Below, piece after piece: positions 1 to 60,658 of a stretch of DNA of 63,458 nucleotides. The DNA comes from Candidatus Staskawiczbacteria bacterium. GTDB lineage: Bacteria; Patescibacteriota; Minisyncoccia; Minisyncoccales; Staskawiczbacteraceae. Position 1 is the stretch's first letter. Each line of letters starts with the position of its first letter. The translations under genes and the position numbers were made by a program. The stretch lies in contig JAPLZC010000012.1 of the NCBI GenBank assembly GCA_026395215.1, forward strand, positions 1-63,458, in the 5' to 3' direction. The notes beneath the pieces are model-generated. The model searched no databases and was not told the origin of the DNA. It saw only the letters and a program-made list of their open reading frames with translations.

Positions 1-3000
1 GATAGTCTCATCACTAGTGAAAGACAAAGTAACCTGGTTACCAACTTTGGCTTTGGTTGTAACTGAGTTGTCAGAGACAATAGAGACAGAAGAAAGTGTC
101 GGCGCAGTCCCAATACCTCCACTTCCTGTTGGATATTTGACAATTACAACTCCCGAACCTCCATTACCACCCTCTGCTGAAGCTCCGCCACCACCTCCAC
201 CACCACCGCCAAGTCCATCTGTTCCATTTACACCTGGTACGCCTGTACCTGAACCACCGCCACCTCCACCACCAGCACCACCATCTCCATACCCACCATT
301 CCAATTTCCTCCTCCACCACCACCAGCATATACAACACTACTTCCACTAATTGTATAAGTTCCACCATCGCCCCCATTATGAGCACCTCCCTGAGCTCCA
401 AGGCCACCTCCATATGTTCCTCCTGAAACTTGAGCCCCTCCACTACTATTTCCACCATTGCCTCCTAAAGCAACAATTGAACCAAAAGAAGAATTACCCC
501 CAACACCTCCCCAACCACCCGTACCACCAGCACCGACTATAACATCTATACTTCCACTGGCAGAATAAGAAGCATCATAATTCAAACTGCCTGCGCCTCC
601 TCCACCAGAGTTACCTCCACCGCCACCTCCACCAGCAACAACCAAAGCAGTAACACTACAGCTTTTAGCTGGAGCAAAGGTTCCGGCTCCGGTGAATGTG
701 TGTACGGTATAACCACCGTCATATGGCGTATCTGGACGAGGATTTAAACCACTTGAGTCTGTATATGTAATTGTTCCACCTGTTGCAGAACAGCCACCGT
801 TTGTGCCTGAGTTTGGAGTGCCAACTATGTTGCCGATAGTGTCTTTGACATTGGCTTGGGTAACAGTAATATAGTTACCAGCAGTGGTAACACCGTCTCC
901 CATTGCCTCGCTAAAAGTGACATCAACAGTCAAACCTGTCTGCACTGTCACAGCCGTGACAGTTGGAGCGGTGACGTCTAAAATAAAGTTGCCCATGTTT
1001 GTCCAATCAGAGGTTACTGAGCCATCGTTATTTTGTGCACACCAATAATATGTACCGCTACTTCCAATTGAGTCAGACGGCGTCCATGTGGTGGCATAAT
1101 TAGTATTGGCATCAGGTGCAGAAACGGGATCAGAAGTTCCGCTTCCATTTGATGCAAGACTTGTTGGCGAAGCAAGAATACAATCATCGGCTGACAAAGT
1201 ATCAATTCTGTAATTTGTTGTAGCTCCAGTAGTTCCAGTATCTGGGTCTGAAAAGTTTGCAGACAAAGTTGGTGTGGTATCTGTGGTAACAGAAGCGTTA
1301 GCCGGCGAAACCAAAGTCGGCACATTTGGCGCAGCGTTTGCGCCCGGTGTCAAATACCTTACAATAACAATTCCAGAACCACCGTTTCCACCATTATAAG
1401 CACCACCAGCACCATTTCCTCCGCCTCCACCTCCTCCACCTAAACCATCTGTTCCATTATTTCCTACTGAACTTAGTTTTCCATCTCCACCGCCACCCGA
1501 ACCTCCTGTTCCGCCTGAACCTGATAAATAAATTCCTCCACCACCACCTCCTGCATAATAAACATCAGAGCCACTTATAGTATAATTTAATCCTGATCCA
1601 CCATTTCCACCTTTAGCAGTTTCTCCAATTGCACCTGCTGTTCCTGCACCACCTCCACCACCACCACCATAATTATCTGTATTAACACCATCTCCTCCGC
1701 TATTTCCTTGGTCTGTTGTTCCGCTAGAACCAAATTTACAATCAGGAGTACCTCCTCCAATACCCTTACCTCCACCACCAGAACCACCTGTTATTGCAGC
1801 ATATGTTACATTATTTCCACCACCTCCTCCACTTCCCCCAACTGCATCTAAAGTTCCAAATGAGGAATTGGTTCCATCTCCTCTTGTATCTTCCCCGGCC
1901 ACTCCTCCGGCACCAACGACAACATCTGTTGATCCACTTACAGCATAAGAACTATTGTAAATTAATCCGCCGGCACCTCCTCCACCACCTTCTAAAGAAC
2001 CTCCAGATCCTCCGCCAGCTACAACCAAAACCTTAACGGAAGTGACGCCGATTGGCGGAGTGAATGATGTAGTTCCAACTGTTGTGTATGTACAAACAGT
2101 ATATAGAGGATCGTCAGTTGCGGTGGTGCAAGCAGATTGCCCCTCCGACCCCGCCCCATTATTATAAAGTGTCAAAATATCATCCGCCGTCAAAGCCGTG
2201 TCATAAATACGGCCGTCGTCCATTGAACCCTTCCAGTGACCAGAAGACCAAGGGGATAAACCAATATATAATGGACTATCCCCATTTATAAGAGCAGAAA
2301 ATGAACCGGCAGAATTATCTGTAGTAGTGAGAAGATTTGTATTGTCATACATTTTAATTCCAGTACTAGAAGTGCTTCCATCCCAAGTTGCAACAACATG
2401 ATGCCAACCACCATCACAAGCTGCTACACCATTATTCCCTGTTAGTTGTCTTCGCCCAATATATGCATTATTAGTTTGATCATAAATAATTGTTTCAAAC
2501 ATATTATCCCCATCATTTAAGCAATCAAACGCAAAATAATATTCCCTATTAGTGTTATCAGATTTATATTTACCCATTATAACCGAATAACCATTGCCTG
2601 ACCCATCATCTGTATTTTTTACCCACGCAGACAAAGTAAAACCTGTTGCCGGTGTTAAGCTATCTGAATCTGGAACAGTTACATAATCACTCGTTCCGTT
2701 GAAGCTTAAGGCTTTGCCGATTTTGGCGGTGGCTAGAAGGTCTGTGTTTTGTTGAGCGGTTCCTGTGTGTCCACCAACGCTGTCTGCCACTGTTTTATTT
2801 GTTGAATCTTCATTCATCTTGTAATGAGCCGCGAGGCCTGTTCCCAAAGCCTCCACCTCACTTTCAGTTCCTGCCCCACTATTATATAGAGAAGCAATTA
2901 CACTTGTATCTGTTCCACCAGAAGTAATATCAGAATTATAAATACGAAAATCATCCATTGAACCCTTGAAATAAGTTGAATTAGGAGAAAAATCACCATG

Positions 3001-6000
3001 TTCTTCGTGTCCAATTATCCAACCCTTATTACTATCTAAAGGTGCTGGAAGTGAAGTTTCACCATACGTTGGACTTTGTGCAACACCATTGTAATATACA
3101 TGAGCCATTCCTGAATAATAAGCTACAGTCATGTGCGTCCAAGTATTTATAGAAGGAGGACTAAAATATACATAACCAAATGATCCACCATTACCCCTAT
3201 TTGTAGCAATCACAAGATAAGTGGGACCCATATATGCTTCTATATCGTCTACATTTCCAGATCCTCTTGTAAAAAGAGAATTATAATCTGACAAAAGGGT
3301 AGGATATACCCAAGTTGCCAAAGTAAAATTATTCGTGAAATCAAGAGCTTCATTTTGAGGTATTGAAACATAATCACTGGTGCCGTTGAAAGTTAGGGCA
3401 CTGGCGATTTTAGAGGTAGTTATAAGATTTGTATTTTGTTGGGCTGTGCCGGTATTTGAACCAATGCTATCTGTAACCGTAGCTGAAGAAGCGCTGTCAT
3501 CATTCATTGTGTAATGAGCCACCAGCCCACTCCCCAAATCCGTCGGAGTCAAATATCGAACAATCACAACTCCAGAACCACCATCTCCACCAGTAGATGA
3601 TGAACCATGATTTCCGCCACCCCCACCACCACCGCCAAGTCCATCTGTTCCATTTGTTCCATTTACTGAAGAATCATTTCCTCCATTTCCTCCGCCACCA
3701 TTTCCACCATTTCCAACCGAACCACTTCTACAACCTCCGCCACCACCACCTGCATAATAAACATCAGAACCACTTATAGTATAATTTAATCCTGCTCCAC
3801 CATTTCCTGCCTGACCTGCCGCACCATTCGCACCAATAGCTCCCGATCCACCACCGCCTCCCGCAAAATAATCTGAAGAGTATACTCCTGCTCCTCCCCC
3901 ATAACCCTGTGCACTTGTTCCACTTCCGCCCGCTCTTTCATATCCACCATTACCGCCTCCACCAGAACCACCATCTCCACCAGCAACATCACCCGAAGAC
4001 CCTCCTCCTCCACCAACAGCCACCAAACTTCCAAAAGAAGAATTTTCTCCATTATTTATTGTTGTACTATAGGTTGAGTTAGTTAACCCTGTTCCACCTG
4101 CTCCAACAACAACATCTGTTGCTCCACTTACAGCATAAGAACTATTGTAAATTAATCCACCCGCTCCTCCACCACCTGCTCCAGCACCTGCTGCTCCACC
4201 CCCTCCACCTCCAGCGACAACCAAAACCTTAACGGAAGTGACGCCGGTTGGCGGGGTGAATGATGTGGTTCCAACTGCTGTGTATGTACAAACAGTATAT
4301 AGAGGATCGTCTGGCGCGGTTGCACAAACCGGGTCTACAATGTAGTCAATTTCAATATTGCCGGAGAATAATAAGTCATAGACGGCGGAGTTAGTGTAAT
4401 TTGGATAAATCTTGTAAGTGTTTTCGCCGTTGATGGCGAATTCACCAATGATATCGTTACCATTTTCGTTAAAGACGGTAATGGTTCCTGTACCTTTGGC
4501 ATAGATGGTCATATCATTTCCGGCGGTTAGGTTGTGTTCAAAGGTTGCTCTTATATAGTGAGTGTCGGGGATGGTCACCCAAACATTGTCTTGGGTAACT
4601 GTTTGCTCATAAACATCATTAACAATTTCTTTGTTGGCATCTAACTCAAATGCTTTTGAAATAAAAATAATTTCAAAGGTTTGTTCAGACAAGTGTGGGA
4701 CTGTCCATTCTACGTAGTCCAGTTTGCCGTTACCGTTGGTGTCGTATGCGTGGAAGGCAACTTCTTTATTGTCTTCATTAGTCCACTTAATTTTGATTTT
4801 GTTTTCTTGGCCAACTTTGAATATTTCTGGGATTTTTGTAGAAGCCAAAACATCAACAATTGGAGCGTTTTCGTTTGAGGCGGTAATGCGGGCTGTGCCT
4901 TCGCCAACAGGAGTAACCAAACCTGTATTGTCTACTACGGCAACTGCGGTGTTGTTTGACGCCCAGTTGACTACTGTCTCCATTGGCTGATTGTTTTGGT
5001 CTAAAGTGTTAGCAACTAATTGCTGAGTGCTTCCGCCAGCAGTTAAATTGGCTGTTAACGGAGTAATATTTATTTTTGTGAGAACCGGTGAAATTATTGC
5101 CGAAGAAATATCAGCCGCTAAAAAATGGGTAAAAGAAGCAATAGCGCGCACAAAACCGGAGATAAGCGAAGCCGCCGCATCAATTGGAGATACTTCTTCA
5201 ACTGGCGCGGGAATTTCTATAGTTGGAGTTTCCTCCACCGGAACAGGTGTCTCTGCCGGAGTCTCTACTGGTGCTGGCGCGACTTCCGGTGCCGGCGTTT
5301 CTTCAGGTGTAGGTGTAACTTCTGGCGCCTCGGGTGTAACATCAGTCGGTGGGATGTCCGACGTCCCACCACTCTCTACCGGTGCCGATGTTTCAGCCGG
5401 TGCTGGCACAACCTCCCGCCCTTCGGGGGCGAGGCTCGCCCCTTCGGGGGCGGCTGGTGCTGTATATATAGAAGGAGAAACTGTAATAATTGCCGGGGCT
5501 GTGCTGGTGACTGCAGGTCCCGAGCCGGGTACTTCATCGGGAGCTGAAACAGTAACAATTTTTCCGGTGTCTGTTTCTTGCTCGGTAATAACTGGAGCAG
5601 GTGTTTCATAGGTAACTTGCACATATGTCTCTTCGACAACCGGAGTCTCTTCGACAACCGGAGTCTCTTCGACAACCGGAGTCTCTTCGACAACCGGAGT
5701 CTCTTCGACAACCGGAGTCTCTTCGACGACCTGTTCAATCAAACCTGCCTGCGCAGTCAGGTCTACAACGGTTTCATCGGGGGTTGACGCTACTATGTTT
5801 TCTACAGCGTCTCCAAGATCGGCAAGCAAAGAACCAAAACCGTCGCTAACGCTGGCAAGAAATGAATTATTCTTTTGTTTTGATGGGACAACTGCTTCGG
5901 CTAATTGCTGTCTTTGGTTAAAAGATAATTGTTCTGTTTTTTTTGTTTGCAAAACTTCCTTCGCCTGTTCTGCGGAAATTTTTATAATTTTAATGTTGCT

Positions 6001-6363
6001 GGCATTTTTGGGAAGCACCAGCAAACTTTTGCCGGACTTAATGTCACTAATTTTAACTAACTTTGTCCAGGCAACAGAATTTCCATTGGCAACTATGTTT
6101 GTGTTTTGTTTGGTAACTGCCGTGTTAATTACAGCCAACTGGTTTATTTTATTTTGCGGAATAAAAAATGAGGCAACAACAAAAAGCAAAACAAAAATAG
6201 CCAAACCCTGATATGCAAGAAATGGCTTAAACGAAAAAGAATATTTTGAGTTTGCAAAAATGGTTACTTCTTTTTTGGCTTGGTTGCGTAAAGTTATTCC
6301 CCAGCGTAAACGCAACATTTTATATCGCAGAACAATTTTTTGCCAATAAGCAAAATTAATCAT
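1..6363 (-). CDS. giant cell-surface protein, partial (C-terminus beyond window start): N-terminal TM anchor, P/E/T/A-rich linker, Big_2-like Ig domain, ~180-aa module shared with 12531..17327, three glycine-rich domains (VLVVAGGGGGG...GSGVVIVRY), two LamG/concanavalin-like domains, Ig/FN3-like region
   Basis: ATG at 6363-6361 with an in-frame stop upstream at 6385-6387. I hand-checked many 60-nt lines of the minus frame and found no stops down to position 1. It is absent from the ORF track because its stop is off-window. N-terminus reads MINFAYWQK...GLAIFVLLFVVASFFI (TM). LamG-type motifs present (FNGTSDYV, GSMDD.RIY). Clear paralogy to the 1598-aa ORF. Confidence 0.8.
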   Translation of the reverse strand, partial: MINFAYWQKIVLRYKMLRLRWGITLRNQAKKEVTIFANSKYSFSFKPFLAYQGLAIFVLLFVVASFFIPQNKINQLAVINTAVTKQNTNIVANGNSVAWTKLVKISDIKSGKSLLVLPKNASNIKIIKISAEQAKEVLQTKKTEQLSFNQRQQLAEAVVPSKQKNNSFLASVSDGFGSLLADLGDAVENIVASTPDETVVDLTAQAGLIEQVVEETPVVEETPVVEETPVVEETPVVEETPVVEETYVQVTYETPAPVITEQETDTGKIVTVSAPDEVPGSGPAVTSTAPAIITVSPSIYTAPAAPEGASLAPEGREVVPAPAETSAPVESGGTSDIPPTDVTPEAPEVTPTPEETPAPEVAPAPVETPAETPVPVEETPTIEIPAPVEEVSPIDAAASLISGFVRAIASFTHFLAADISSAIISPVLTKINITPLTANLTAGGSTQQLVANTLDQNNQPMETVVNWASNNTAVAVVDNTGLVTPVGEGTARITASNENAPIVDVLASTKIPEIFKVGQENKIKIKWTNEDNKEVAFHAYDTNGNGKLDYVEWTVPHLSEQTFEIIFISKAFELDANKEIVNDVYEQTVTQDNVWVTIPDTHYIRATFEHNLTAGNDMTIYAKGTGTITVFNENGNDIIGEFAINGENTYKIYPNYTNSAVYDLLFSGNIEIDYIVDPVCATAPDDPLYTVCTYTAVGTTSFTPPTGVTSVKVLVVAGGGGGGAAGAGAGGGGAGGLIYNSSYAVSGATDVVVGAGGTGLTNSTYSTTINNGENSSFGSLVAVGGGGGSSGDVAGGDGGSGGGGNGGYERAGGSGTSAQGYGGGAGVYSSDYFAGGGGGSGAIGANGAAGQAGNGGAGLNYTISGSDVYYAGGGGGGCRSGSVGNGGNGGGGNGGNDSSVNGTNGTDGLGGGGGGGGNHGSSSTGGDGGSGVVIVRYLTPTDLGSGLVAHYTMNDDSASSATVTDSIGSNTGTAQQNTNLITTSKIASALTFNGTSDYVSIPQNEALDFTNNFTLATWVYPTLLSDYNSLFTRGSGNVDDIEAYMGPTYLVIATNRGNGGSFGYVYFSPPSINTWTHMTVAYYSGMAHVYYNGVAQSPTYGETSLPAPLDSNKGWIIGHEEHGDFSPNSTYFKGSMDDFRIYNSDITSGGTDTSVIASLYNSGAGTESEVEALGTGLAAHYKMNEDSTNKTVADSVGGHTGTAQQNTDLLATAKIGKALSFNGTSDYVTVPDSDSLTPATGFTLSAWVKNTDDGSGNGYSVIMGKYKSDNTNREYYFAFDCLNDGDNMFETIIYDQTNNAYIGRRQLTGNNGVAACDGGWHHVVATWDGSTSSTGIKMYDNTNLLTTTDNSAGSFSALINGDSPLYIGLSPWSSGHWKGSMDDGRIYDTALTADDILTLYNNGAGSEGQSACTTATDDPLYTVCTYTTVGTTSFTPPIGVTSVKVLVVAGGGSGGSLEGGGGGAGGLIYNSSYAVSGSTDVVVGAGGVAGEDTRGDGTNSSFGTLDAVGGSGGGGGNNVTYAAITGGSGGGGKGIGGGTPDCKFGSSGTTDQGNSGGDGVNTDNYGGGGGGGAGTAGAIGETAKGGNGGSGLNYTISGSDVYYAGGGGGGIYLSGSGGTGGSGGGGDGKLSSVGNNGTDGLGGGGGGGGNGAGGAYNGGNGGSGIVIVRYLTPGANAAPNVPTLVSPANASVTTDTTPTLSANFSDPDTGTTGATTNYRIDTLSADDCILASPTSLASNGSGTSDPVSAPDANTNYATTWTPSDSIGSSGTYYWCAQNNDGSVTSDWTNMGNFILDVTAPTVTAVTVQTGLTVDVTFSEAMGDGVTTAGNYITVTQANVKDTIGNIVGTPNSGTNGGCSATGGTITYTDSSGLNPRPDTPYDGGYTVHTFTGAGTFAPAKSCSVTALVVAGGGGGGGNSGGGGAGSLNYDASYSASGSIDVIVGAGGTGGWGGVGGNSSFGSIVALGGNGGNSSGGAQVSGGTYGGGLGAQGGAHNGGDGGTYTISGSSVVYAGGGGGGNWNGGYGDGGAGGGGGGGSGTGVPGVNGTDGLGGGGGGGGGASAEGGNGGSGVVIVKYPTGSGGIGTAPTLSSVSIVSDNSVTTKAKVGNQVTLSFTSDETI
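5348..5370. repeat. 23-nt GC-rich palindrome, 'SDIPP' family, in frame in giant protein
   Basis: GGTGGGATGTC-C-GACGTCCCACC. The coding (minus) strand gives GGTSDIPP. Copies also at 17469 and 18174. Confidence 0.85.
5416..5453. repeat. 38-nt double-hairpin GC-rich element, 'ASLAPEGRE' family, in frame
   Basis: CCGCCCTTCGGGGGCGAGGCTCGCCCCTTCGGGGGCGG encodes APEGASLAPEGR. Homologous copies in rpsF and ssb. Confidence 0.8.
5627..5730. repeat. 18-nt perfect tandem repeat (5 full copies + 1 partial) encoding (EETPVV)n
   Basis: gtctcttcgacaaccgga repeated head to tail. Unit length is a multiple of 3. Confidence 0.95.
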
Positions 6364-7633: not shown

Positions 7634-8188
7634 TTAGAACTTGACTGCGACGGGTTGTTTTTCGGCTTCGCTGGTTGTTTGGAATAAATCCATTTGGGCA
7701 AATCCAAATTGTTTTGCAACCATATTTACAGGAAAACTTTCTACCTTAATATTTAAGTCTCTGACATTTGTGTTGTAGAATCTGCGGGCTGCCTGAACTT
7801 TGTCTTCTGTATCTGTTAGCTCTCTTTGCAATTCCAAAAAGTTTGTAGAAGCTTTTAAATCTGGATAAGCTTCTGCAACGGCAAATAAACTTTTCAAAGT
7901 ATTTGATAACATATTTTCTGCCTGCTCTTTCTGAGCTGATCCTTCTGCATTCATTGCAGCTGCCCTTGCCTGTGTAACTTTTTCAAAAACTCCGCTCTCG
8001 TGAGCCGCGTATCCCTTTACAGTTTCCACTAAATTTGGAATTAAATCATATCTTCTTTTTGTTTGTACGTCTATGTCAGACAAAGCTTCTTTTGCCCTAT
8101 TTTTTAACACCACTAGACTGTTAAATGCCATTATCAGCCACAAAACTAACAAAACTACTACCAATAAAATAATATAAAATATTGACAT
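7634..8188 (-). CDS. lemA: LemA family membrane protein
   Basis: N-terminal TM, then LemA-type sequence (NSLVVLKNRAKEALSDIDVQTKRRYDLIPNLVETVKGYA...RRFYN). The start at MSIFYI (8188) abuts the upstream stop at 8190. Confidence 0.85.
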   Translation of the reverse strand: MSIFYIILLVVVLLVLWLIMAFNSLVVLKNRAKEALSDIDVQTKRRYDLIPNLVETVKGYAAHESGVFEKVTQARAAAMNAEGSAQKEQAENMLSNTLKSLFAVAEAYPDLKASTNFLELQRELTDTEDKVQAARRFYNTNVRDLNIKVESFPVNMVAKQFGFAQMDLFQTTSEAEKQPVAVKF

Positions 8189-8189
8189 G

Positions 8190-8720
8190 TTATTTTGGCA
8201 AACTATCAATCAAACCCTCAATGCGAGGATATTGAGTAATAAATTTGTAATTAAATAATTTTATTAACATTAAAAAGTCTCCTAACTCTGAACGAAATCC
8301 TTCCGGCCCTGAAAAAACTTCCCACAATTGTTTAATAGAATTTTTAGTATAATTATGCAAAACCTCATAATCAGATTTTTTCTTCAAATAGTTAATTATC
8401 TGTTTAAACTCTCCCCTGTCTAGCCAAATACCTCCGCACATTTTACAAAAATCAACTTTTGTCTTTGATCCACCATATTTAACTTCCGTCAGGCCTGCTC
8501 TATCAACAGGACAATGTTTATCTCCATGTGAAACTTTGAACTTTGTTTTATCTCTCCACAAATCAATATCTACCCAATTTAATTGTTTGTCTTTGTCATC
8601 TTTTGCCAAACGTAATTCATTTTTATCAAACCAAATACCCAAACACCTTGGGCAGTATTCAACTTCCATGTCATGAAACAAAATTTTCTCTAAATACTCT
8701 TTATCATTTGGACACTCCAT
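8190..8720 (-). CDS. double zinc-ribbon protein (TFIIB-type zf, PF13453-like)
   Basis: Two CPxC...C..CGGIW.D..E motifs (CPRCLGIWFDKNEL; CKMCGGIWLDRGEF). Start at MECPND is chosen because a terminator occupies 8802-8831. Confidence 0.6.
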   Translation of the reverse strand: MECPNDKEYLEKILFHDMEVEYCPRCLGIWFDKNELRLAKDDKDKQLNWVDIDLWRDKTKFKVSHGDKHCPVDRAGLTEVKYGGSKTKVDFCKMCGGIWLDRGEFKQIINYLKKKSDYEVLHNYTKNSIKQLWEVFSGPEGFRSELGDFLMLIKLFNYKFITQYPRIEGLIDSLPK

Positions 8721-9196: not shown

Positions 9197-12016
9197 TCAA
9201 GATTTTATATATTGCCCGGTGTATGACTTTTTTACCTTTGCAACATCAGCAGGAGTTCCTTGTGCAACTATTTGGCCTCCCCCGCTTCCACCCTCAGGTC
9301 CAAGGTCAATCAACCAGTCGGCATTTTTAATTAAATCTATATTGTGTTCAATAACCAAAACTGTGTTGCCTTTGTCAACCAAGCCTCCCAAAACAGCAAT
9401 TAATTTTTTAATATCATCAAAATGCAAACCGGTTGTTGGTTCATCTAAAATATATAAAGTTTTGCCGGTGCCTTTTCGGGAAAGTTCTGTTGCCAATTTT
9501 ACCCTTTGCGCTTCCCCACCAGACAAAGAAGTTGCAGATTGCCCCAGTTGTACATAGGAAAGTCCAACCTCTTTTAAAGTTTTCATTTTTTCATAGAGTC
9601 CGGTAATATTCTTAAAAAATTCCAGTGCCTCTTCAACTGTCATATCTAAAACCTCGGCAATGTTTTTGTCTTTGTAAGTAACCTCCAAAACTTCTTTGCT
9701 ATACCTCTTTCCATGGCATTCCTCACATTCTACATAAATGTCCGGCAAGAAATACATTTCTACTTTTTTCTGTCCTTGTCCTTCACACGCTTCACATCTT
9801 CCACCTTTCACGTTAAAACTAAATCTGCCGGCTGAATATCCGCGTACTCTGGCCTCTTTTGTTTTTACAAAGATATCTCTTATCACTGAAAACGCTCCCG
9901 TATATGTTGCCGGATTACTTCTTGGAGTTCTACCAATTGGAGATTGGTCAACCAAAACCACTTTGTTTATATTTTCTATACCGGTTATTTCTTTGTGCTT
10001 TCCAGGTTCGTCTTTTGCGCGGTAAAACTTTTTTAACAAAAACTTTGCCAAAATATCATTTACAAGAGATGATTTCCCAGACCCCGAAACTCCGGTAACA
10101 CAAACAAATTCGCCCAGGGGTATTTGCACATCAATATTCTTAAGATTATGCTCACTCGCGCCAATTACGCTCAAATACTTTTGAGAGCCCTGGGCGCCCC
10201 GTCGAATGACGGGGTGAGTTTTCTTATCAGCCTTCACCGTCTTCCTCCCAGACAAATACTCTCCGGTTAGCGTATTACTTTTGAGAATCTGCTTATATGT
10301 TCCCTCAAAAACAACTTTTCCTCCGTGTTTTCCTGCTCCCGGCCCAATATCAACAATCCAATCAGACGCCTGCATTGTTTGAGGATCGTGTTCTACCACA
10401 ATAACCGTGTTTCCCAAATCCTTTAACTTAACCAATGTATCAATTAACTTGTGCTGATCTCTGGCATGTAATCCAATAGACGGCTCATCTAAAATATATA
10501 AAACGCCAGACAGTTTAGAACCAATTTGAGTTGCTAATCTTATCCTTTGTTCTTCTCCACCAGCCAATGTCCCAGCCTTTCTGGACAAAGTTAAGTAACT
10601 CAGACCAACATCAGTTAAAAACTGTGTCCTATCAATTATTTCTTTTATAATTGGCGCACAAACCTTTGTTTCTCCTGCATTTAGTTTTTCTGGTAATTTT
10701 GTGAATAATTCTTTTACTTTGTCCACCGGCATATCAACAACTTTATCAATAGATAAATCATTTACTGTTACTGCCAAAACTTCTGGCTTTAATCTTTTGC
10801 CGTTGCACTTTGGACAAATTTTAATAACCATATATTGCTCAATTTCTGCTCTTGTCCAGTCTGAATCTGTTTCGTGATATCTTTTTTCCAAGTTTGGAAT
10901 TACTCCCATAAATTCGGCGTCTCCATTTAAAATAATATCAACTATTTTTGCAGGCAAATCTTTTACTTCTTCATCTAAAGAAAACTTATATTTATCAGCT
11001 AACCCAGAAAGAATAGAATAATAATATCCTTGTCTGCCAACTTTGTGGCTGGCGCGAGACCATGGCCAAATAGCACCTTCGGCAATTGTTAATTTTTTAT
11101 TTGGAATAACCAATTCCGGGTCAACTTCTAACTTTTCTCCCAATCCAGTACATTCTGGGCAAGCTCCATAAGGATTATTAAATGAAAATAATCTTGGCTC
11201 TAACTCCGGCAAAGAAATCCCGCACATTTCACACGCGAAGTGTTCGCTGAAAACTAAATCATCTTTGTCTTTTCCGGCCACAATTACAATTCCCTTGCCT
11301 AAATGCAAAGCGGTTTCTAGAGAATCAACCAGTCGCGAACGATCTAAATCTTTTTCAAGAATTAAACGGTCCACAACAACTTCTATGTCGTGTTTTTTTT
11401 GCTTATCTAAATTTGCATTTAGCGATTCTTCAACTGGATAAATAACTCCGTCTATTCTTACTCTAACAAAACCTCCCCTTTGAATTTCTTCTAGAACTCC
11501 ACGATGCTCGCCCTTTTTTTCCCGGATCACCGGACCTAGAATCGTTAATTCGTATGGGCGCGTTCGTAGTTGCGCTTTTCGCATGCTTAAAACTTGGTCA
11601 ACAATTTGGTCAACTGTCTGGCGAGAAATTAACTTTCCACATTTTGGGCAATGCGGTTTACCTATACGGGCGTAAAGCAATCTTAAATAATCATATATTT
11701 CAGTAATAGTACCAACTGTGGACCTTGGGTTATGAGTAGATTTTCTTTGGTCAATTGAAATTGCAGGAGAAATTCCTTCTATTTTATCTACATCGGGTTT
11801 GTCCATTACACCCAAAAATTGTCTGGCGTAAGCTGACAAACTTTCAACATATCTGCGCTGTCCTTCTGCATATAACGTATCAAAAGCTAAAGATGATTTA
11901 CCAGAGCCAGAAAGCCCGGTAATTACAATCAACTTATTTTTAGGCAAATCCAAATCTATATTCTTTAAATTATGGACTCTTGCCCCGCGAATTTTTATGT
12001 AATTATCTATACTCAT
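9197..12016 (-). CDS. uvrA: excinuclease ABC subunit UvrA
   Basis: 939 aa. Two ABC modules ([23 protein letters not shown] signatures) and Cys4 zinc modules. Confidence 0.98.
10197..10214. repeat. GC-rich stem-loop, 'PVIRPGA' family, in frame in uvrA
   Basis: CCCCGTC-GAAT-GACGGGG, an 18-mer identical to 17797-17814 in uvrC. Encodes HPVIRRGA on the minus strand. Confidence 0.85.
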
Positions 12017-17390: not shown

Positions 17391-18671
17391 ATGGATAGAT
17401 TTAAGTTACTACCTAAATCAAAGCTCAACGAACTCCCCAAAACAAGCGGCGTTTATTGCTTTGCAGTCGGTGGGATGTCCGACATCCCACCGATTTATAT
17501 CGGCAAGGCCGTGAATATACAAAGCAGGGTTAAAAATCATTTCCAACAGCCTTCTTACCGAGATAATATATTTATAGACAAAGTTGAGAAAATTGGATAT
17601 TTTGAAACTGGCTCAGAAATTGAGGCTTTGCTTTTGGAAGCCAGCTTAATTAAAAAGCACCAACCAAGGTTTAATGTAGTCTGGAAGGACGATAAGAATT
17701 ATTTTTACGTGGCTATCGAGCAAGATAAAAACAAGATTCCGTATGTCTTTATTACACATAAGCCAAAAAAAATCCACCCGGTCATCCGACCGGGTGCCCC
17801 GTCGAATGACGGGGCAAAATCCCAGTATATCGGACCTTTTGTAGAAGGGACAGCTTTAAAAATGACCCTAAAGTTTTTAAGACGCGTATTCCCCTACTAC
17901 ACTTCTGCGAGGCATCCAAAGAGCAACTGCACCTGGTGCCATTTAGGACTTTGTCCCGGACCAAATCACGATTTGAAGGCGTACAAAAAAAATATAAAAA
18001 AACTAGTTTTAATTCTTCAAGGGAAAAGCAAAACTGTTTTAAATTCCCTGAAACGGGAGATGGCTACTTTTTCTGAACAAAACAAGTTTGAGGAGGCCGG
18101 CAAAGTACGCGATGAAATCGCCAGCTTACAACAAGTCATGTCCCACTCCAGCGTCATTACCCAAGCAAAGTCCGGTGGGGTGTCGGACATCCCACCACTC
18201 TCTGGCAGGGTTGAGTGTTATGATGTGTCTAACATACAGGGCAAACAAGCCACCGGTTCTATGATTGCTTTTACAGATGGAAAACCAGATAAGAGCCAAT
18301 ATAGAAAGTTTAAAATAAAAATGGAAAACACGCCCAATGACATAGCTATGTTAAAAGAAATTATAACCAGACGACTTAACCACGTTAAGTGGCCTTATCC
18401 GGAAGTTATGTTGATAGACGGTGGAAAAGCTCAGTTGAATGCGGCAATAGAAATTAAAAATTATTTTAAAAATTTAAAAATTAGAAATTTAAAAATTATC
18501 TCCATTGCCAAGGGCAGACAAGAATTATTTATTGAGGGGTGCAAGGAACCAATACCACTAAAAAATCTTCCACAAGAAACTTATAACCTGATAAAAAATT
18601 TAGATGACGAAGCTCACAGATTTGCCATAACTTACCATAAAAAATTGAGAAGAAAGGAATTGTTGCAATAG
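17391..18671 (+). CDS. uvrC: excinuclease ABC subunit UvrC, short form (no C-terminal HhH2)
   Basis: GIY-YIG (GVYCF...YIGKA.N...R), UVR motif (KFEEAGKVRDEIASLQ), RNase H-like endonuclease domain (YDVSNIQG...YRKFKIK...IDGGKAQL). Ends right after EAHRFAITYHKKLR. Confidence 0.93.
   Translation: MDRFKLLPKSKLNELPKTSGVYCFAVGGMSDIPPIYIGKAVNIQSRVKNHFQQPSYRDNIFIDKVEKIGYFETGSEIEALLLEASLIKKHQPRFNVVWKDDKNYFYVAIEQDKNKIPYVFITHKPKKIHPVIRPGAPSNDGAKSQYIGPFVEGTALKMTLKFLRRVFPYYTSARHPKSNCTWCHLGLCPGPNHDLKAYKKNIKKLVLILQGKSKTVLNSLKREMATFSEQNKFEEAGKVRDEIASLQQVMSHSSVITQAKSGGVSDIPPLSGRVECYDVSNIQGKQATGSMIAFTDGKPDKSQYRKFKIKMENTPNDIAMLKEIITRRLNHVKWPYPEVMLIDGGKAQLNAAIEIKNYFKNLKIRNLKIISIAKGRQELFIEGCKEPIPLKNLPQETYNLIKNLDDEAHRFAITYHKKLRRKELLQ
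17469..17491. repeat. 23-nt perfect palindrome, 'SDIPP' family, in frame in GIY-YIG domain
   Basis: GGTGGGATGTC-C-GACATCCCACC encodes GGMSDIPP. Confidence 0.9.
17777..17815. repeat. tandem pair of GC-rich stem-loops, 'PVIRPGA' family, in frame
   Basis: CCCGGTC-ATCC-GACCGGG followed by GCCCCGTC-GAAT-GACGGGGC encodes HPVIRPGAPSNDGA. Confidence 0.9.
18174..18196. repeat. 23-nt palindrome, 'SDIPP' family, in frame
   Basis: GGTGGGGTGTC-G-GACATCCCACC encodes GGVSDIPP. Flanks are shared with the copy at 5348. Confidence 0.9.
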
Positions 18672-18710
18672 TTATTGCTTTTTAACAAAAAACCTGCTAT
18701 TATATATCAA

Positions 18711-19103
18711 ATGAAGAGATTACTCTCTCAGATTGTTGCGGCTGCATTAGGATTGTGGCTGGCAATGTTGTATGTGCCCGGGGTTGTAATAAAAGCATAC
18801 CCAACATCCAACTTTTTCGGGTTTCCATTAACAGCTCAGTGGGAAGTTATTTTGGTTCTAGGAATTGTCTTGGGCTTATTAAATTATTTTTTAAGACCTA
18901 TTCTAAAGACCTTGGCTCTGCCGTTAGAAATAATTACTCTTGGACTTTTTACAATAATTATAGATATGGGCTTGATATGGTTACTAGAAACAATGTTTGA
19001 CGAACTGACTGTACCATTTTTCTTACCTCTTCTATATACAACCCTAGTTATTTGGATATCAAATATTATTATCATATTTTTTACAACAAAACATAACAAA
19101 TAA
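18711..19103 (+). CDS. 4-TM membrane protein, phage-holin-4 / DUF360-like family
   Basis: LGLLNYFLRPILKTLALPLEIITLGLFTIIID matches the PF04020-type core. ATG at MKRLLSQ is preferred over the TTG at 18675. Confidence 0.6.
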   Translation: MKRLLSQIVAAALGLWLAMLYVPGVVIKAYPTSNFFGFPLTAQWEVILVLGIVLGLLNYFLRPILKTLALPLEIITLGLFTIIIDMGLIWLLETMFDELTVPFFLPLLYTTLVIWISNIIIIFFTTKHNK

Positions 19104-21927: not shown

Positions 21928-22010
21928 GCGGACGTGGCGAAATGGCAGACGCATACGCTTCAGGTGCGTACGACCTCACGGTCATGAGGGTTCAACTCCC
22001 TCCGTCCGCA
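21928..22010 (+). tRNA. tRNA-Leu (anticodon CAG), class II
   Basis: Hand-folded: acceptor GCGGACG/CGTCCGC, anticodon stem TACGC/GCGTA with loop TTCAGGT, variable arm GACC-TCAC-GGTC, T arm GAGGG-TTCAACT-CCCTC, discriminator A. Confidence 0.9.
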
Positions 22011-22020
22011 CAAAGGGTTC

Positions 22021-22061
22021 GCCCAGTGATGAACACTGGGCGCCAGGTGTTAATCACCTGG
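22021..22061. repeat. tandem pair of GC-rich stem-loops inside a tRNA 3'-end remnant
   Basis: GCCCAGTG-ATGAA-CACTGGGC then CCAGGTG-TTAAT-CACCTGG. Flanks GGGTTC / CAACTCCCTCCCGCGGCA mimic the T arm + acceptor of the adjacent tRNA. Confidence 0.7.
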
Positions 22062-22146
22062 CAACTCCCTCCCGCGGCACACTTCGGTTTAGACCTCAGT
22101 GTAAACTTAAAATAAAAAAATTAATATAAAATATAATTAAAATAAA

Positions 22147-34136: not shown

Positions 34137-34710
34137 ACATCCGGAAGTGTACCTTAAGTCTATCTTGGTTGTCTATAAAATCTAGCAATCCAAACCGAAC
34201 ATATTTTTCAAGCTTAAACAATTTTATAAAGTCATCAATTTCTTTTTTACAATCATAAGGGTGTAGGAAAATGCTTTCCTGTAATTCATAAAATCCGCCC
34301 ATTTTAAGCCTATAATTTAAAGCATTCCTACCCTTTCTGCACTCATTTGGTATGTCAAAAGCCACCATCCGCCATTTACCGTCCCATTTTTCTTTCTTGT
34401 TAGCCAACCTCCTAAACCTATAATTAATCGCCCGCAACCTCCCCTTCTCAGTCAATGAAACCAAAACAGAGCCTTCATAGCCCTTCTTTTTCCCTGCCTG
34501 CGCAGGCAGGTCAATTAATTTATACCTTTTAAGATCAACAACAGCCCTCCGTAATTGCTTGCCGGTAAAATTATGTATATCTTTTATAATGTCATTTATA
34601 ATAAAAAACCTCGCGTCACCATGCCCACCAATATGGGCGTGATCGGTCTGGTAATATATACTCCACAATATTTCATCCAAAATCTTATTCATACATTTAT
34701 TATACACCAT
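34135..34710 (-). CDS. wHTH + PaaX-middle/Cas2-fold domain protein (PaaX-like), paralog of 49986..50558
   Basis: WDGKWRMVAFDIPNECRKGRNALNYRLKMGGFYELQESIFLHPYD matches the PaaX/Cas2-like ferredoxin-fold pattern, with an N-terminal winged-helix-like segment. M7 may be the true start. Confidence 0.65.
   Translation of the reverse strand: MVYNKCMNKILDEILWSIYYQTDHAHIGGHGDARFFIINDIIKDIHNFTGKQLRRAVVDLKRYKLIDLPAQAGKKKGYEGSVLVSLTEKGRLRAINYRFRRLANKKEKWDGKWRMVAFDIPNECRKGRNALNYRLKMGGFYELQESIFLHPYDCKKEIDDFIKLFKLEKYVRFGLLDFIDNQDRLKVHFRM
34493..34510. repeat. 18-nt perfect GC-rich palindrome in frame
   Basis: CCTGCCTGC|GCAGGCAGG encodes LPAQAG. Confidence 0.75.
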
Positions 34711-44348: not shown

Positions 44349-46980
<2,632 letters not shown>

Positions 46981-49131: not shown

Positions 49132-49886
49132 AACATTGCCAAAAATGTTCCCATAATTAAAAATGGGCCAAAGGGTATTTCGCTTTTTAATCCTTTTTTC
49201 TGGAAGGCCATTAGTATTAATCCTATTATAGCACCAAAAAAGAATGCCAAAAATAGAGCCACAAAAATATTCGGCATACCCAGCAAAAACCCCATTAAAA
49301 TAGCCAACTTTACGTCCCCAAACCCCATAGCCTTTCCCCGCGATAACAAAAATATAGCTAAAAAGAACCCCGAAGCAATTACCGCCGCAATCAAGAATCC
49401 CGGTATGTCCCTAAAATTTTCGACTAACCTAAAAACAAAAGTAATTATAATTGCGGGAAATAAAACCTTGTCTGGTATAATATAGTGCTTTAAATCGTAC
49501 ACAAAAATTATAATCAAAGAGCTGGCGACATAAAACAGGAAAACGAGGTTTAAACCCCATACCCACCCGGTCATACGACCGGGCGCCCCCGCCAAAATGG
49601 GGGCGAAATTGTAAATTAGCAAAAAAATTAGGCCTGTCGCGAGTTCAACCACAGGATACTGTGCGCTAATTTTTTTGTGGCAGTACCTACATTTACCGCC
49701 CAAAAACACCCAGCTAAAAACCGGAAATAAATCCAACCAACTTAAGTTATGTTTGCAGTGTGGGCAAAAACTCCTTCCCTTCAAACTCTTCTCCTCTTCC
49801 AACCGATAAATAAAACAATTCAAAAAACTCCCAATACAAATCCCCAACACAAACACAAAAACCCCAATTAAATAATTAAAAATCAT
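49083..49886 (-). CDS. pilD: prepilin peptidase PilD (A24 family)
   Basis: Zn-binding CPHCKH...CRYCHKKI, polytopic, GFGDVKL and a second catalytic Asp region. Confidence 0.92.
   Translation of the reverse strand: MIFNYLIGVFVFVLGICIGSFLNCFIYRLEEEKSLKGRSFCPHCKHNLSWLDLFPVFSWVFLGGKCRYCHKKISAQYPVVELATGLIFLLIYNFAPILAGAPGRMTGWVWGLNLVFLFYVASSLIIIFVYDLKHYIIPDKVLFPAIIITFVFRLVENFRDIPGFLIAAVIASGFFLAIFLLSRGKAMGFGDVKLAILMGFLLGMPNIFVALFLAFFFGAIIGLILMAFQKKGLKSEIPFGPFLIMGTFLAMFWGNQIIQWYLNIFKI
49566..49605. repeat. tandem GC-rich stem-loops, 'PVIRPGA' family read in the opposite sense, in frame in pilD
   Basis: CCCGGTC-ATAC-GACCGGG then CGCCCCC-GCCAAAAT-GGGGGCG encodes APILAGAPGRMTGW. Confidence 0.85.
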
Positions 49887-49985: not shown

Positions 49986-50558
49986 TCAATCAAGCTTAAA
50001 ATGCTTTTTAAGATAATCCCCATTATCTATAAACTCCAATAATGCGAAACGGACATACTTTTCCAGCTTAAACAAACTCACAAAATCCTTTATCTCCTTT
50101 TCACAGTCATAGGGGTATATAAATAAACTCTCTTGTAGCTCGTAAAACCCGGCCATACGCGCCCTATACCTTAAGGCGTTCCTTCCTTTTTTGCATTCGT
50201 CGGGTATGTCAAAAGCTACCATTCGCCACCTCCCGTCCCAAACTCCCTTCTTGTTATTCAGTCTCTTAAATCTGATATTAAGCGCCCTTAATTTACCCTT
50301 GTCGGTTAAAGAAATTATAATAGAACCATCATAGTTCTTTTTCTTTTCAATAAATTTATGCTTTTTCAATTCTGTTATACCATCTTTAAAATCTTTCCTG
50401 CCCGCTCTCGCCAAAGCTCTAATGCTTTTGCCCGATATACCAAATATTTTTTCAGCTCTATAAGAAAATCCAAACTCTACGCAATCAGCCAGATGCAGTA
50501 ATATTTTTTCCGACAATCTCTGTTCTCCCGCTTTGGGAAAGTGTTTTCCTGAATCCAT
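49986..50558 (-). CDS. wHTH + PaaX-middle/Cas2-fold domain protein (PaaX-like), embedded in the pilus cluster
   Basis: WDGRWRMVAFDIPDECKKGRNALRYRARMAGFYELQESLFIYPYD. The C-terminal half is close to 34135..34710. Confidence 0.65.
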   Translation of the reverse strand: MDSGKHFPKAGEQRLSEKILLHLADCVEFGFSYRAEKIFGISGKSIRALARAGRKDFKDGITELKKHKFIEKKKNYDGSIIISLTDKGKLRALNIRFKRLNNKKGVWDGRWRMVAFDIPDECKKGRNALRYRARMAGFYELQESLFIYPYDCEKEIKDFVSLFKLEKYVRFALLEFIDNGDYLKKHFKLD

Positions 50559-59914: not shown

Positions 59915-60658
59915 GTGGATAAGTCAAAAGACTTTTTATTAGATTTATTGTTCCCAAAGTTCTGTTTAGGATGTAAAAAAGAAGGCACATATTTATGCGA
60001 TGATTGCCGGGGGCTTTTGGATATTTCAGAATTTGGTTATTGCCTATGCGAAGCAAATGGACAGCCCAAGCGCCTTTTGGAAGGCCACGTGGGGAAATGT
60101 AGTATTTGCTCTAGAAAAGAATTGGCGGGACTTTATTTTGCGCTTTCCTACAAGGAGAAGACACTGACAAGAAATTTAATTTATCAATTTAAATACAAAC
60201 CGTATTTAAAAGACCTGGCAAAAACTTTAGCCAGCATAATTGTAGAACATCTTGTGATTTCAGGAAAAAACACAAATGACATTTGGGAAAACAGTGTTTT
60301 GGTTCCCGTACCTTTGGATAGTAAAAAAATAAAAGACCGCGGGTACAATCAATCTGAAGAATTGGCAAAAGAATTGTCTGTAGTTCTAAATGTTCCAGTT
60401 GTTTTAAATGTTCTTGTAAAAATAAAACAAACCGATTCTCAAAAAGGCCTGTCAAAAACCGAAAGAGAGAAAAATCTCCAAGGCGCCTTCGCCATCAAAA
60501 GTTGTTCGACGTCGGACGTCGAACAACTTTCCGGGAAAAAAGTCTTTCTAGTTGATGACGTCTACACCACCGGTTCCACAATGACTGAGTGTGCCAAAAC
60601 CCTTAAAACCGGCGGCGCCAAACAAGTTTGGGGAATTTGCCTGGCCCGCGAAGGGTAA
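59915..60658 (+). CDS. comF: ComF family protein (ComFC-type phosphoribosyltransferase-like)
   Basis: N-terminal Cys4 (CLGC...CDDC) and C-terminal VFLVDDVYTTGST PRTase loop. GTG start. Confidence 0.85.
   Translation: MDKSKDFLLDLLFPKFCLGCKKEGTYLCDDCRGLLDISEFGYCLCEANGQPKRLLEGHVGKCSICSRKELAGLYFALSYKEKTLTRNLIYQFKYKPYLKDLAKTLASIIVEHLVISGKNTNDIWENSVLVPVPLDSKKIKDRGYNQSEELAKELSVVLNVPVVLNVLVKIKQTDSQKGLSKTEREKNLQGAFAIKSCSTSDVEQLSGKKVFLVDDVYTTGSTMTECAKTLKTGGAKQVWGICLAREG
60498..60530. repeat. 33-nt perfect palindrome (16-bp arms) in frame in comF
   Basis: AAAGTTGTTCGACGTC-G-GACGTCGAACAACTTT = 11 codons (KSCSTSDVEQL), immediately before the PRTase loop. Confidence 0.9.

Follow-up and report, generated by a model that had tools for sequence, protein, structure and literature searches.

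Stem-loops in uvrA, uvrC, ligA and pilD of a Staskawiczbacteria contig are probably solo copies of a double-hairpin module associated with a minimal GIY-YIG nuclease at tRNA genes

Why do four unrelated protein genes of one bacterium carry the same GC-rich stem-loop? The question arises from contig JAPLZC010000012.1 of a Candidatus Staskawiczbacteria bacterium, whose whole length of 63,458 bp (~38% G+C) is called the window here. Relatives of its UvrC, UvrA and LigA proteins indicate the same origin. An 18-mer, CCCCGTC-GAAT-GACGGGG, is identical in the window's uvrA and uvrC; uvrC contains a further hairpin, CCCGGTC-ATCC-GACCGGG, whose exact reverse complement is present in ligA, and pilD contains CCCGGTC-ATAC-GACCGGG together with a second hairpin. 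All of these hairpins had been listed in an earlier, sequence-only reading of the window, and we recovered every one of them in its place (Table 1). The explanation that we favor, and hold to be probable, is that the stem-loops are solo copies, similar to miniature inverted-repeat transposable elements (MITEs), of a mobile module of ~42 nt that is the companion of a minimal GIY-YIG nuclease invading tRNA genes.

The pattern CCCSGTCN4GACSGGG occurs five times in the window versus 0.00 times expected from 100 dinucleotide shuffles. GC-rich hairpins, defined by a stem of 7 bp or more that includes six or more G/C and by a loop of 3 to 8, number 15 versus 0.1 in Markov shuffles, which is a ~150-fold excess. 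The stems in uvrC are actually 9 bp long, the two hairpins overlap by 2 nt, and the pair folds as single-stranded DNA with -19.8 kcal/mol (z = -6.6). The peptide reading of the uvrC element is HPVIRPGAPSNDGA, and the pilD element read on the opposite strand gives GAPGRMTG; the readings proposed earlier for these two genes, for ligA and for uvrA proved correct. The window copies differ in their stage of decay, from the intact module in uvrC through a variant in pilD (hairpin 1 intact, hairpin 2 with an 8-nt loop) and a degenerate copy in ligA to the uvrA copy, in which hairpin 2 is lost.

The complete module consists of two abutting hairpins, each with a 9-bp stem, that have a boundary dinucleotide in common. 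Its consensus is C(G/A)-CCCNNTC-ATNC-GANNGGG-(C/T)G-CCCNNTC-GNAT-GANNGGG-C(G/A). The foot of the hairpins is CG/CA-CCC and the apex is TC-GNAT-GA or its complement, with the loop ATNC in hairpin 1 and GNAT in hairpin 2. Because loop 1 is of the complement type of loop 2, the module has the same architecture on both strands. Stop codons are absent from four of its six reading frames, which read xPVIRxGAxSNDxA or xxSxDxAPxRMTG; the remaining frame on each strand has TGA or TAA in the apex. Copies within open reading frames (ORFs), of which we found 24 over all loci (20 in metagenome loci), use the stop-free frames exclusively.

Public metagenome contigs were scanned with a pattern of hairpin 1 and four further bases (CCCSGTCATNCGACSGGGYGCC), which leaves hairpin 2 unconstrained except for its first two stem bases (CC). 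At least 120 stretches were obtained; ~7 were chance matches on contigs with >58% G+C, and the others hold the complete double hairpin. The module is widespread in Patescibacteria (bacteria of the candidate phyla radiation, CPR). In related species the exact family is represented by one copy (locus L027) in 1.28 Mb from 80 species, compared with 4-5 in the 63-kb window.

An alignment of 71 distinct module copies revealed how the stems vary. Hairpin 2 is 98% paired, with at least 13 different complementary stem triplets and double-sided changes at six of its seven pairs, and one of these pairs occurs in all four Watson-Crick types (U:A 26, C:G 16, G:C 16, A:U 11). At the S:S pair of hairpin 1, 43 copies have C:G, 28 have G:C and none is mismatched, so the compensatory swap first noticed between two stem types of the window is real. 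The outer pair also changes jointly (G:C 54, A:T 12), and the base preceding the apical TC varies (G 51, A 17). The covariation score was 0.300 versus 0.129 ± 0.008 in shuffles (0 of 500 reached 0.300) and 0.04-0.08 for slid partners, and its unbiased support comes from hairpin 2, one S:S pair and the outer pair because the search pattern fixed hairpin 1. The earlier suggestion that pairing rather than sequence is conserved thus holds across the family.

G·U pairs account for ~1% of the cells of the alignment. Strand-symmetric pairing and the near absence of G·U are a better fit to a constraint on DNA, as hairpins or a cruciform on either strand, than to one on a single RNA strand, and they point to a module constrained as DNA rather than as RNA. 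Strong covariation, and the frequent position of copies just 3' of tRNA genes, would also suit a structured RNA, terminator or processing signal selected for a host function. We regard this as improbable: copies occur in both orientations, within coding sequence and in hypervariable loops, their presence among close relatives is patchy, those in uvrA and ligA decay in place, and besides the scarcity of G·U pairs there is neither a U-tract nor an Rfam match. Searches of Rfam, at gathering thresholds for the window and 16 loci and with E up to 10 for two stretches, returned tRNAs, rRNA and the L10 leader alone and left the module unmatched. We rejected an intrinsic terminator, since a T-run is absent after the modules and four modules lie in the middle of genes. 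A CRISPR repeat was rejected as well; CRISPR-DR9 scored 18.7-23.9 bits, below the cut-off of 45, the window copies are dispersed, and the few tandem cases repeat a whole unit.

We compared the in-gene copies with the same proteins of relatives. The basal state of UvrC among 120 orthologues is ITHQKN..ENAEYIGPF, and the window UvrC has KKIHPVIRPGAPSNDGAKSQ at that point. Only two of the 120 have the insert at this site, namely the window's own protein (P0001) and a distant one (P0010, 64% identity); the closest orthologue (P0002, 69%) has a different insert, and P0012 carries the module at another site. The uvrA copy is located in the linker that joins the two ABC modules and that differs in all 51 orthologues, and the same decayed insert is present in two metagenomic UvrA genes (L146, L190). 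In LigA, the copy lies in the HhH-BRCT linker. Besides the window protein, 7 of the 120 homologues that were fetched have it there, among them proteins of 81-84% identity and one (P0214) whose double copy is intact; equally close homologues are without it, and two further homologues have a copy at a different site and in the other frame. The pilD copy occupies a loop between transmembrane segments, which is hypervariable across 150 homologues. The distribution over genomes is a mosaic, with a copy in uvrC and none in ligA in the P0010/P0217 genome, the reverse in the P0068/P0123 genome, and both in the window. These alignments support the view that the segments are lineage-specific additions in variable linkers and loops; the sequence-only reading had named conserved parts of the protein families as the alternative. 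It had also proposed a comparison of presence and absence in relatives, and the patchy mosaic seen in UvrC and LigA homologues fits a propagating element.

The same loops house other short repeats in the UvrC, UvrA and LigA relatives, namely NPKPYTLNP (CCCTAAA-like), QTTNYKLQT, NSKFKIQ, SFAKASEGQ, FDKAQGKQN and long SLRG...ARNDG palindromes, which are palindromic in part and direct repeats in part. It seems that these linkers are contested by more than one selfish repeat family, so that copies recur at one site as much because the site tolerates them as because it is targeted. The window UvrC is itself short (426 aa) and does not match the C-terminal HhH region of solved UvrC structures, a clade-wide property (402-487 aa).

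Most metagenomic copies lie outside protein genes, and their surroundings show the usual setting. The flanks read GGTTCG-module-AATCC, which places the module between positions 57 and 58 of a tRNA T-loop, and 52 of 119 copies are within 100 nt of a tRNA gene. The other TTCG loops occupied are the anticodon loop in tRNA-Ala(cgc) and tRNA-Arg(tcg) and a D-loop with GGTCG before and AATG after the module. Two layouts were seen. In the first, a tRNA 5' fragment ending in TTCG is followed by the module, a small ORF and an intact tRNA; in the second, an intact tRNA is followed by a small ORF, GGTTCG and the module, and an exact duplicate of the tRNA 3' end. The small ORF encodes a nuclease and is co-oriented with the tRNA in both. 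We considered a tRNA intron and rejected it: removal of the module restores a complete tRNA in just 3 of 136 cases, so the module resides in dead tRNA fragments, and a group I match is absent.

The window has its own tRNA-linked relic, which directly follows an intact tRNA-Leu (Table 1) and has the same layout as loci L122, L169 and L181. Its hairpins fold as DNA with -20 kcal/mol (z = -4.3), its AACTCCCTCCCGCGGCA is a 3' fragment of tRNA-Leu with 3 nt different from the resident gene, and the nuclease gene is gone.

Whole units also form tandem arrays. In locus L174 (~8100-8400), half of a T-arm and a spacer form an 80-nt repeat that occurs five times; four repeats include a double hairpin, which in three is the family module, and the last repeat is the intact T-arm of the tRNA. 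Locus L136 (1-260) has tandem 127-nt units of a tRNA-Gly 5' part and the module, and locus L103 (1-1000) has tandem 427-nt units of a pseudo-tRNA-Ser, the module and the nuclease gene. Such arrays suggest repeated insertion into a regenerated target, or slippage.

Which enzyme could move the module? We clustered all ORFs within 900 nt of the 119 metagenomic copies and obtained a sole recurring gene family, present at 23 loci, that encodes a protein of 85-95 aa and matches the Pfam GIY-YIG family (PF01541, E = 1e-13 to 1e-17). The motifs YxY...YTG...RR..EH...YE...RRE..LK are conserved in 26 copies, which come from the loci of relatives and not from the window, and the closest solved relatives are the UPF0213 proteins BH0048 (PDB 1zg2) and EF2693. 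At the nuclease loci, the ORF is flanked by an intact tRNA and a duplicated 5' or 3' tRNA fragment. Among the hairpin-selected loci, the double hairpin is situated within 50 nt (5-46 nt) of the ORF in 21 of 28 nuclease genes. An unbiased sample, six nuclease genes on long contigs chosen by protein homology alone, gave the same picture: all six abut a tRNA gene, and five have a TC-GNAT-GA double hairpin in the duplicated tRNA fragment beside the ORF. At L038, a locus of Staskawiczbacteria, the layout is unchanged and the hairpin pair is another one, and the partnership of nuclease and double hairpin is therefore taken to be general, with the hairpin sequence as its variable partner. The names of the 897 clusters obtained in a protein search for the nuclease indicate Wildermuth-, Staskawicz-, Niyogi- and Portnoybacteria and Paceibacterales. 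Contigs of only 0.5-2 kb carry many of these nuclease genes, consistent with repeated units that break metagenome assemblies.

The nuclease is not the mobilizing enzyme that the sequence-only reading had in mind, a RAYT or IS200-type HUH transposase. We found no HUH/RAYT, integrase or transposase domain in the 50 window ORFs scanned, and neither an HUH nor a transposase gene among the ORFs within 900 nt of the 119 copies. Repetitive extragenic palindromic (REP) or REPIN-like elements moved by a RAYT or an IS200/IS605-type HUH (Y1) transposase are nevertheless similar in some respects. Like REP and BIME sequences, the module is a doublet of short GC-rich palindromes with conserved loops and variable stems, and a hairpin constraint at the DNA level would suit an enzyme acting on single-stranded DNA. 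Besides missing the enzyme, however, the copies have no conserved GTAG-type 5' tetranucleotide and are intragenic or in tRNA loops instead of extragenic, and we consider such an origin very unlikely.

A closer competitor keeps the MITE and separates it from the nuclease. The hairpin pair could be an independent MITE that seeks TTCG loops, is moved by another enzyme and piles up where GIY-YIG homing elements have left dead pieces of tRNA genes, which would serve as neutral landing pads. This would account for a module that is always in a tRNA fragment and never in an intact tRNA, for the ~80% of hairpin-selected loci without a nuclease gene nearby, and for the solo copies in genes. It does not lead one to expect the tight spacing from the ORF or the module at five of six blindly picked nuclease genes; a different hairpin pair in the same position at L038 suggests functional coupling, and no other enzyme family recurs near the copies. 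We judge an independent MITE unlikely, if less so than the other alternatives.

We therefore return to the module as companion of the nuclease, for which we propose the following course of events. The data show the family with its covariation, the insertion status of the in-gene copies and their relatives' association with tRNA loops and the GIY-YIG gene; the part of the enzyme, the place of the cut and solo transposition in trans are inferred. The module is found directly after TTCG in a loop of a tRNA gene, mostly the T-loop (57/58), else an anticodon or D-loop containing TTCG. The unit brings along a replacement copy of the displaced tRNA part, which leaves an intact tRNA and a dead, hairpin-bearing fragment. 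The GIY-YIG protein, as candidate mobilizing enzyme, would cut DNA with a TTCG-type loop in the way that T4 SegB cuts T-arm DNA, with 2-nt 3' overhangs, and the CG...CG bracketing of the module is what a 2-nt staggered cut would be expected to leave. With a copy that bears the element as repair template, the unit would spread, and the host would stay viable thanks to the tRNA part that the unit carries. The likeness of the apex (TCGNATGA) to the T-loop (TTCGAAT) could allow the module to mimic the T-loop or to bind the same enzyme. The hairpin pair may then be copied alone, in trans, into look-alike sites anywhere in the genome. In a gene-dense genome, the insertions that survive would be those that are in frame, lack stop codons and lie in linkers or loops that tolerate them, with later decay, and such selection for tolerated insertions would explain why copies are seen in uvrA, uvrC, ligA and pilD.

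In a further alternative, nothing was transposed, and each hairpin would be a scar formed locally, through fold-back or templated synthesis, when a nuclease break was repaired. Perfect palindromes with many stem variants, and CG...CG brackets compatible with a 2-nt staggered cut, could be read in this way. Unrelated genes and hundreds of contigs, however, share the apex TC-GNAT-GA, the outer CCC/GGG and even entire 18-mers, a common sequence that local synthesis would not reproduce. We think it scarcely probable that the hairpins arose as scars.

Several observations weigh against a mobile module served by the nuclease. The small GIY-YIG gene was not found in the 63-kb window by tblastn, and a trans-acting source elsewhere in the genome must therefore be assumed. 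In full units, both hairpins lie on one side of the nuclease gene (exceptions are L094 and L206), so they are not simple terminal repeats, and the restored tRNA retains the TTCG site, at which it might be expected to be cut again. YYCA or CCAA, and not TTCG, flanks the in-gene copies of the window, whose target rule is looser or different. When filled ligA genes were aligned at the nucleotide level with those of empty relatives (L201-L204), the whole linker differed, and no clean empty site, boundary or target duplication was definable. Finally, hairpin 1 was preset by the pattern used for the metagenome search.

More tentatively, and with somewhat less confidence than we place in the origin of the four stem-loops, we suggest that the full units may represent an undescribed class of bacterial mobile element, in which a single-domain GIY-YIG nuclease and double-hairpin DNA invade the TTCG loops of tRNA genes with a spare tRNA part and the hairpin also jumps alone, leaving in-frame inserts in core proteins. 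A search of the full-text literature found no description of the module or of a GIY-YIG/tRNA-loop/hairpin unit, which is weak evidence because most subscription journals lay outside the search. The evidence points to a widespread partnership, apparently undescribed so far, in which a minimal nuclease and a double hairpin are directed at the loops of tRNA genes.

If this explanation is true, the short lineage-specific linker inserts in essential CPR proteins (UvrA, UvrC, LigA, PilD and others) are debris of selfish hairpins and not adaptations, and many odd CPR-specific insertions in conserved proteins are transposon scars. The ~90-aa nuclease may recognize a DNA shape, the TTCG hairpin loop, and could be a useful enzyme. 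Such elements would join three fields, those of homing endonucleases, of MITE/REP-type repeats and of tRNA genes as targets. In practice, they break assemblies, yield spurious ORFs and pseudo-tRNAs, and can mislead marker-protein alignments and phylogenies.

Table 1. Positions of the modules, their host genes and the tRNA-linked relic in the window
Feature	Position	Strand	Evidence and details
uvrC host gene, 426 aa	17391..18671	+	
Double-hairpin module in uvrC, intact	17773..17820	+	nhmmer with family profile, E = 3e-14
uvrC hairpins	17775-17796; 17795-17816	+	CACCCGGTC-ATCC-GACCGGGTG (18-nt core 17777-17794); TGCCCCGTC-GAAT-GACGGGGCA (18-mer identical to uvrA, 17797-17814); module peptide KIHPVIRPGAPSNDGAKSQ
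uvrA host gene, 939 aa	9197..12016	-	
Half-decayed module in uvrA	10189..10220	-	nhmmer E = 2e-07; hairpin 1 intact (10197-10214), hairpin 2 lost
ligA host gene, 681 aa	44349..46394	-	
Module in ligA	44570..44617	-	nhmmer E = 7.5e-10; hairpin 1 intact (44596-44613), hairpin 2 degenerate, GCCTCGTC-TGCT-GTCGGGGC
pilD (prepilin peptidase) host gene, 267 aa	49083..49886	-	
Module in pilD	49562..49609	+ (pilD gene on -)	nhmmer E = 4e-07; hairpins 49566-49583 and 49584-49605; peptide from other strand FAPILAGAPGRMTGWVW
tRNA-Leu(cag), intact	21928..22011	+	ARAGORN, Rfam
tRNA-linked relic	22012..22080	+	CAAA, GGGTTCG (T-arm 5' half), hairpins 22020-22042 and 22042-22062, AACTCCCTCCCGCGGCA

The window contains further palindromes. 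A second family, GGTGGGATGTC-S-GACATCCCACC, is read as SDIPP and has three copies versus 0.01 expected, two in uvrC (17472-17488, in full 17467-17493, and 18177-18193) and one in a giant ORF (5351-5367). It is also present in P0002, the closest UvrC relative, and has no match in 204 other loci. A ComF-like gene (59915-60658), which encodes a phosphoribosyltransferase with a double zinc ribbon, includes a palindrome with a 15-bp stem at 60498-60530, AAAGTTGTTCGACGT-CGG-ACGTCGAACAACTTT, whose apex, GTC-G-GAC, is similar to that of the SDIPP family. An apical GTC-N(1-4)-GAC had been proposed for all of these families together with the module. The SDIPP and comF palindromes do have GTC-S-GAC in common, but the apex of the module is TC-GNAT-GA with a variable base before it, and double hairpins of the same architecture in the window's relic and at L038 are without GTC/GAC. 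In ligA, a further GC hairpin at 46062-46077 (aa 106-114), TCCGCC-AGCC-GGCGGA, adds PNPPAGGQ to LigA and, of the 44 closest LigA homologues displayed at this site, is shared by P0127 alone. One of the hairpins in the GIY-YIG unit of L038 (TCCGCC-TCAA-CGGCGGA) is similar to it.

Other features of the window concern neighboring genes. The giant ORF is a stop-free frame of >2100 codons on the minus strand (1-6300) that runs off the left end of the contig. Its G+C content is 43-47% and its GC skew strongly negative; it encodes Ser/Thr-rich repeats, and GC hairpins with TTCG loops are clustered in it at 5412-5462. The gene directly after uvrC encodes a membrane protein of the holin family (PF04020; region 17391-19103). 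recA (29082-30121, minus strand) is split into two overlapping ORFs, 29531-30121 for RecA residues 3-176 and 29082-29570 for residue 174 to the end, by a 1-nt frameshift near AAATTAGGAGTGCT, which makes it a pseudogene or an assembly error. Two paralogous proteins of ~190 aa with a PaaX central (Cas2-like) domain are encoded at 34135-34710 and 49986-50558, one of them beside the pilin/pilD cluster.

How does the module relate to known systems? Rickettsia palindromic elements, which Ogata and colleagues are said to have described in 2000, are reportedly selfish palindromic repeats that sit in frame in many housekeeping genes, at tolerant surface sites, and are translated. The likeness is a repeated palindrome in frame in several unrelated protein genes, four in the window. 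The Rickettsia elements are ~100-150 bp long, whereas the module is ~42 nt, consists of GC-rich mini-hairpins and belongs to a different phylum, and the two are analogous and not homologous; we know of no link between the Rickettsia elements and tRNA loops or a GIY-YIG gene. Systems of the REP/BIME/REPIN-RAYT type and the IS200/IS605-derived PATEs are also short non-autonomous palindromes recognized by structure at the DNA level. Unlike them, the module has no GTAG-like guide and no HUH enzyme that we could find, and its hairpins abut each other, lie on one side of the associated gene and are intragenic. The mitochondrial GC clusters and double-hairpin elements of yeast, Allomyces and sponges are mobile, occur also in coding and rRNA genes, stay in transcripts, and are suspected to have nearby-encoded endonucleases as helpers (PMC4478555, PMC2800124). 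They too are short GC-rich (double-)hairpin repeats in AT-rich compact genomes. They differ in being organellar and, for GC42, in an AG target duplication, and neither tRNA-loop specificity nor a fixed pairing with a minimal GIY-YIG protein has been described for them. T4 SegB is a GIY-YIG homing endonuclease encoded in a tRNA cluster that recognizes TψC stem-loop DNA and leaves 2-nt 3' overhangs (PMC2330249). As with SegB and other free-standing GIY-YIG homing endonucleases, which spread by break repair with co-conversion of the flanks, the nuclease gene lies among tRNA genes, its product has the catalytic domain with conserved motifs, and the unit is present or absent at a conserved target with a part-duplicated host gene. 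In contrast to SegB, the nuclease described here is a bare catalytic domain of 85-95 aa that lacks a DNA-binding domain, is invariably accompanied by a double hairpin and a partly duplicated tRNA, and is encoded by cellular Patescibacteria instead of a phage.

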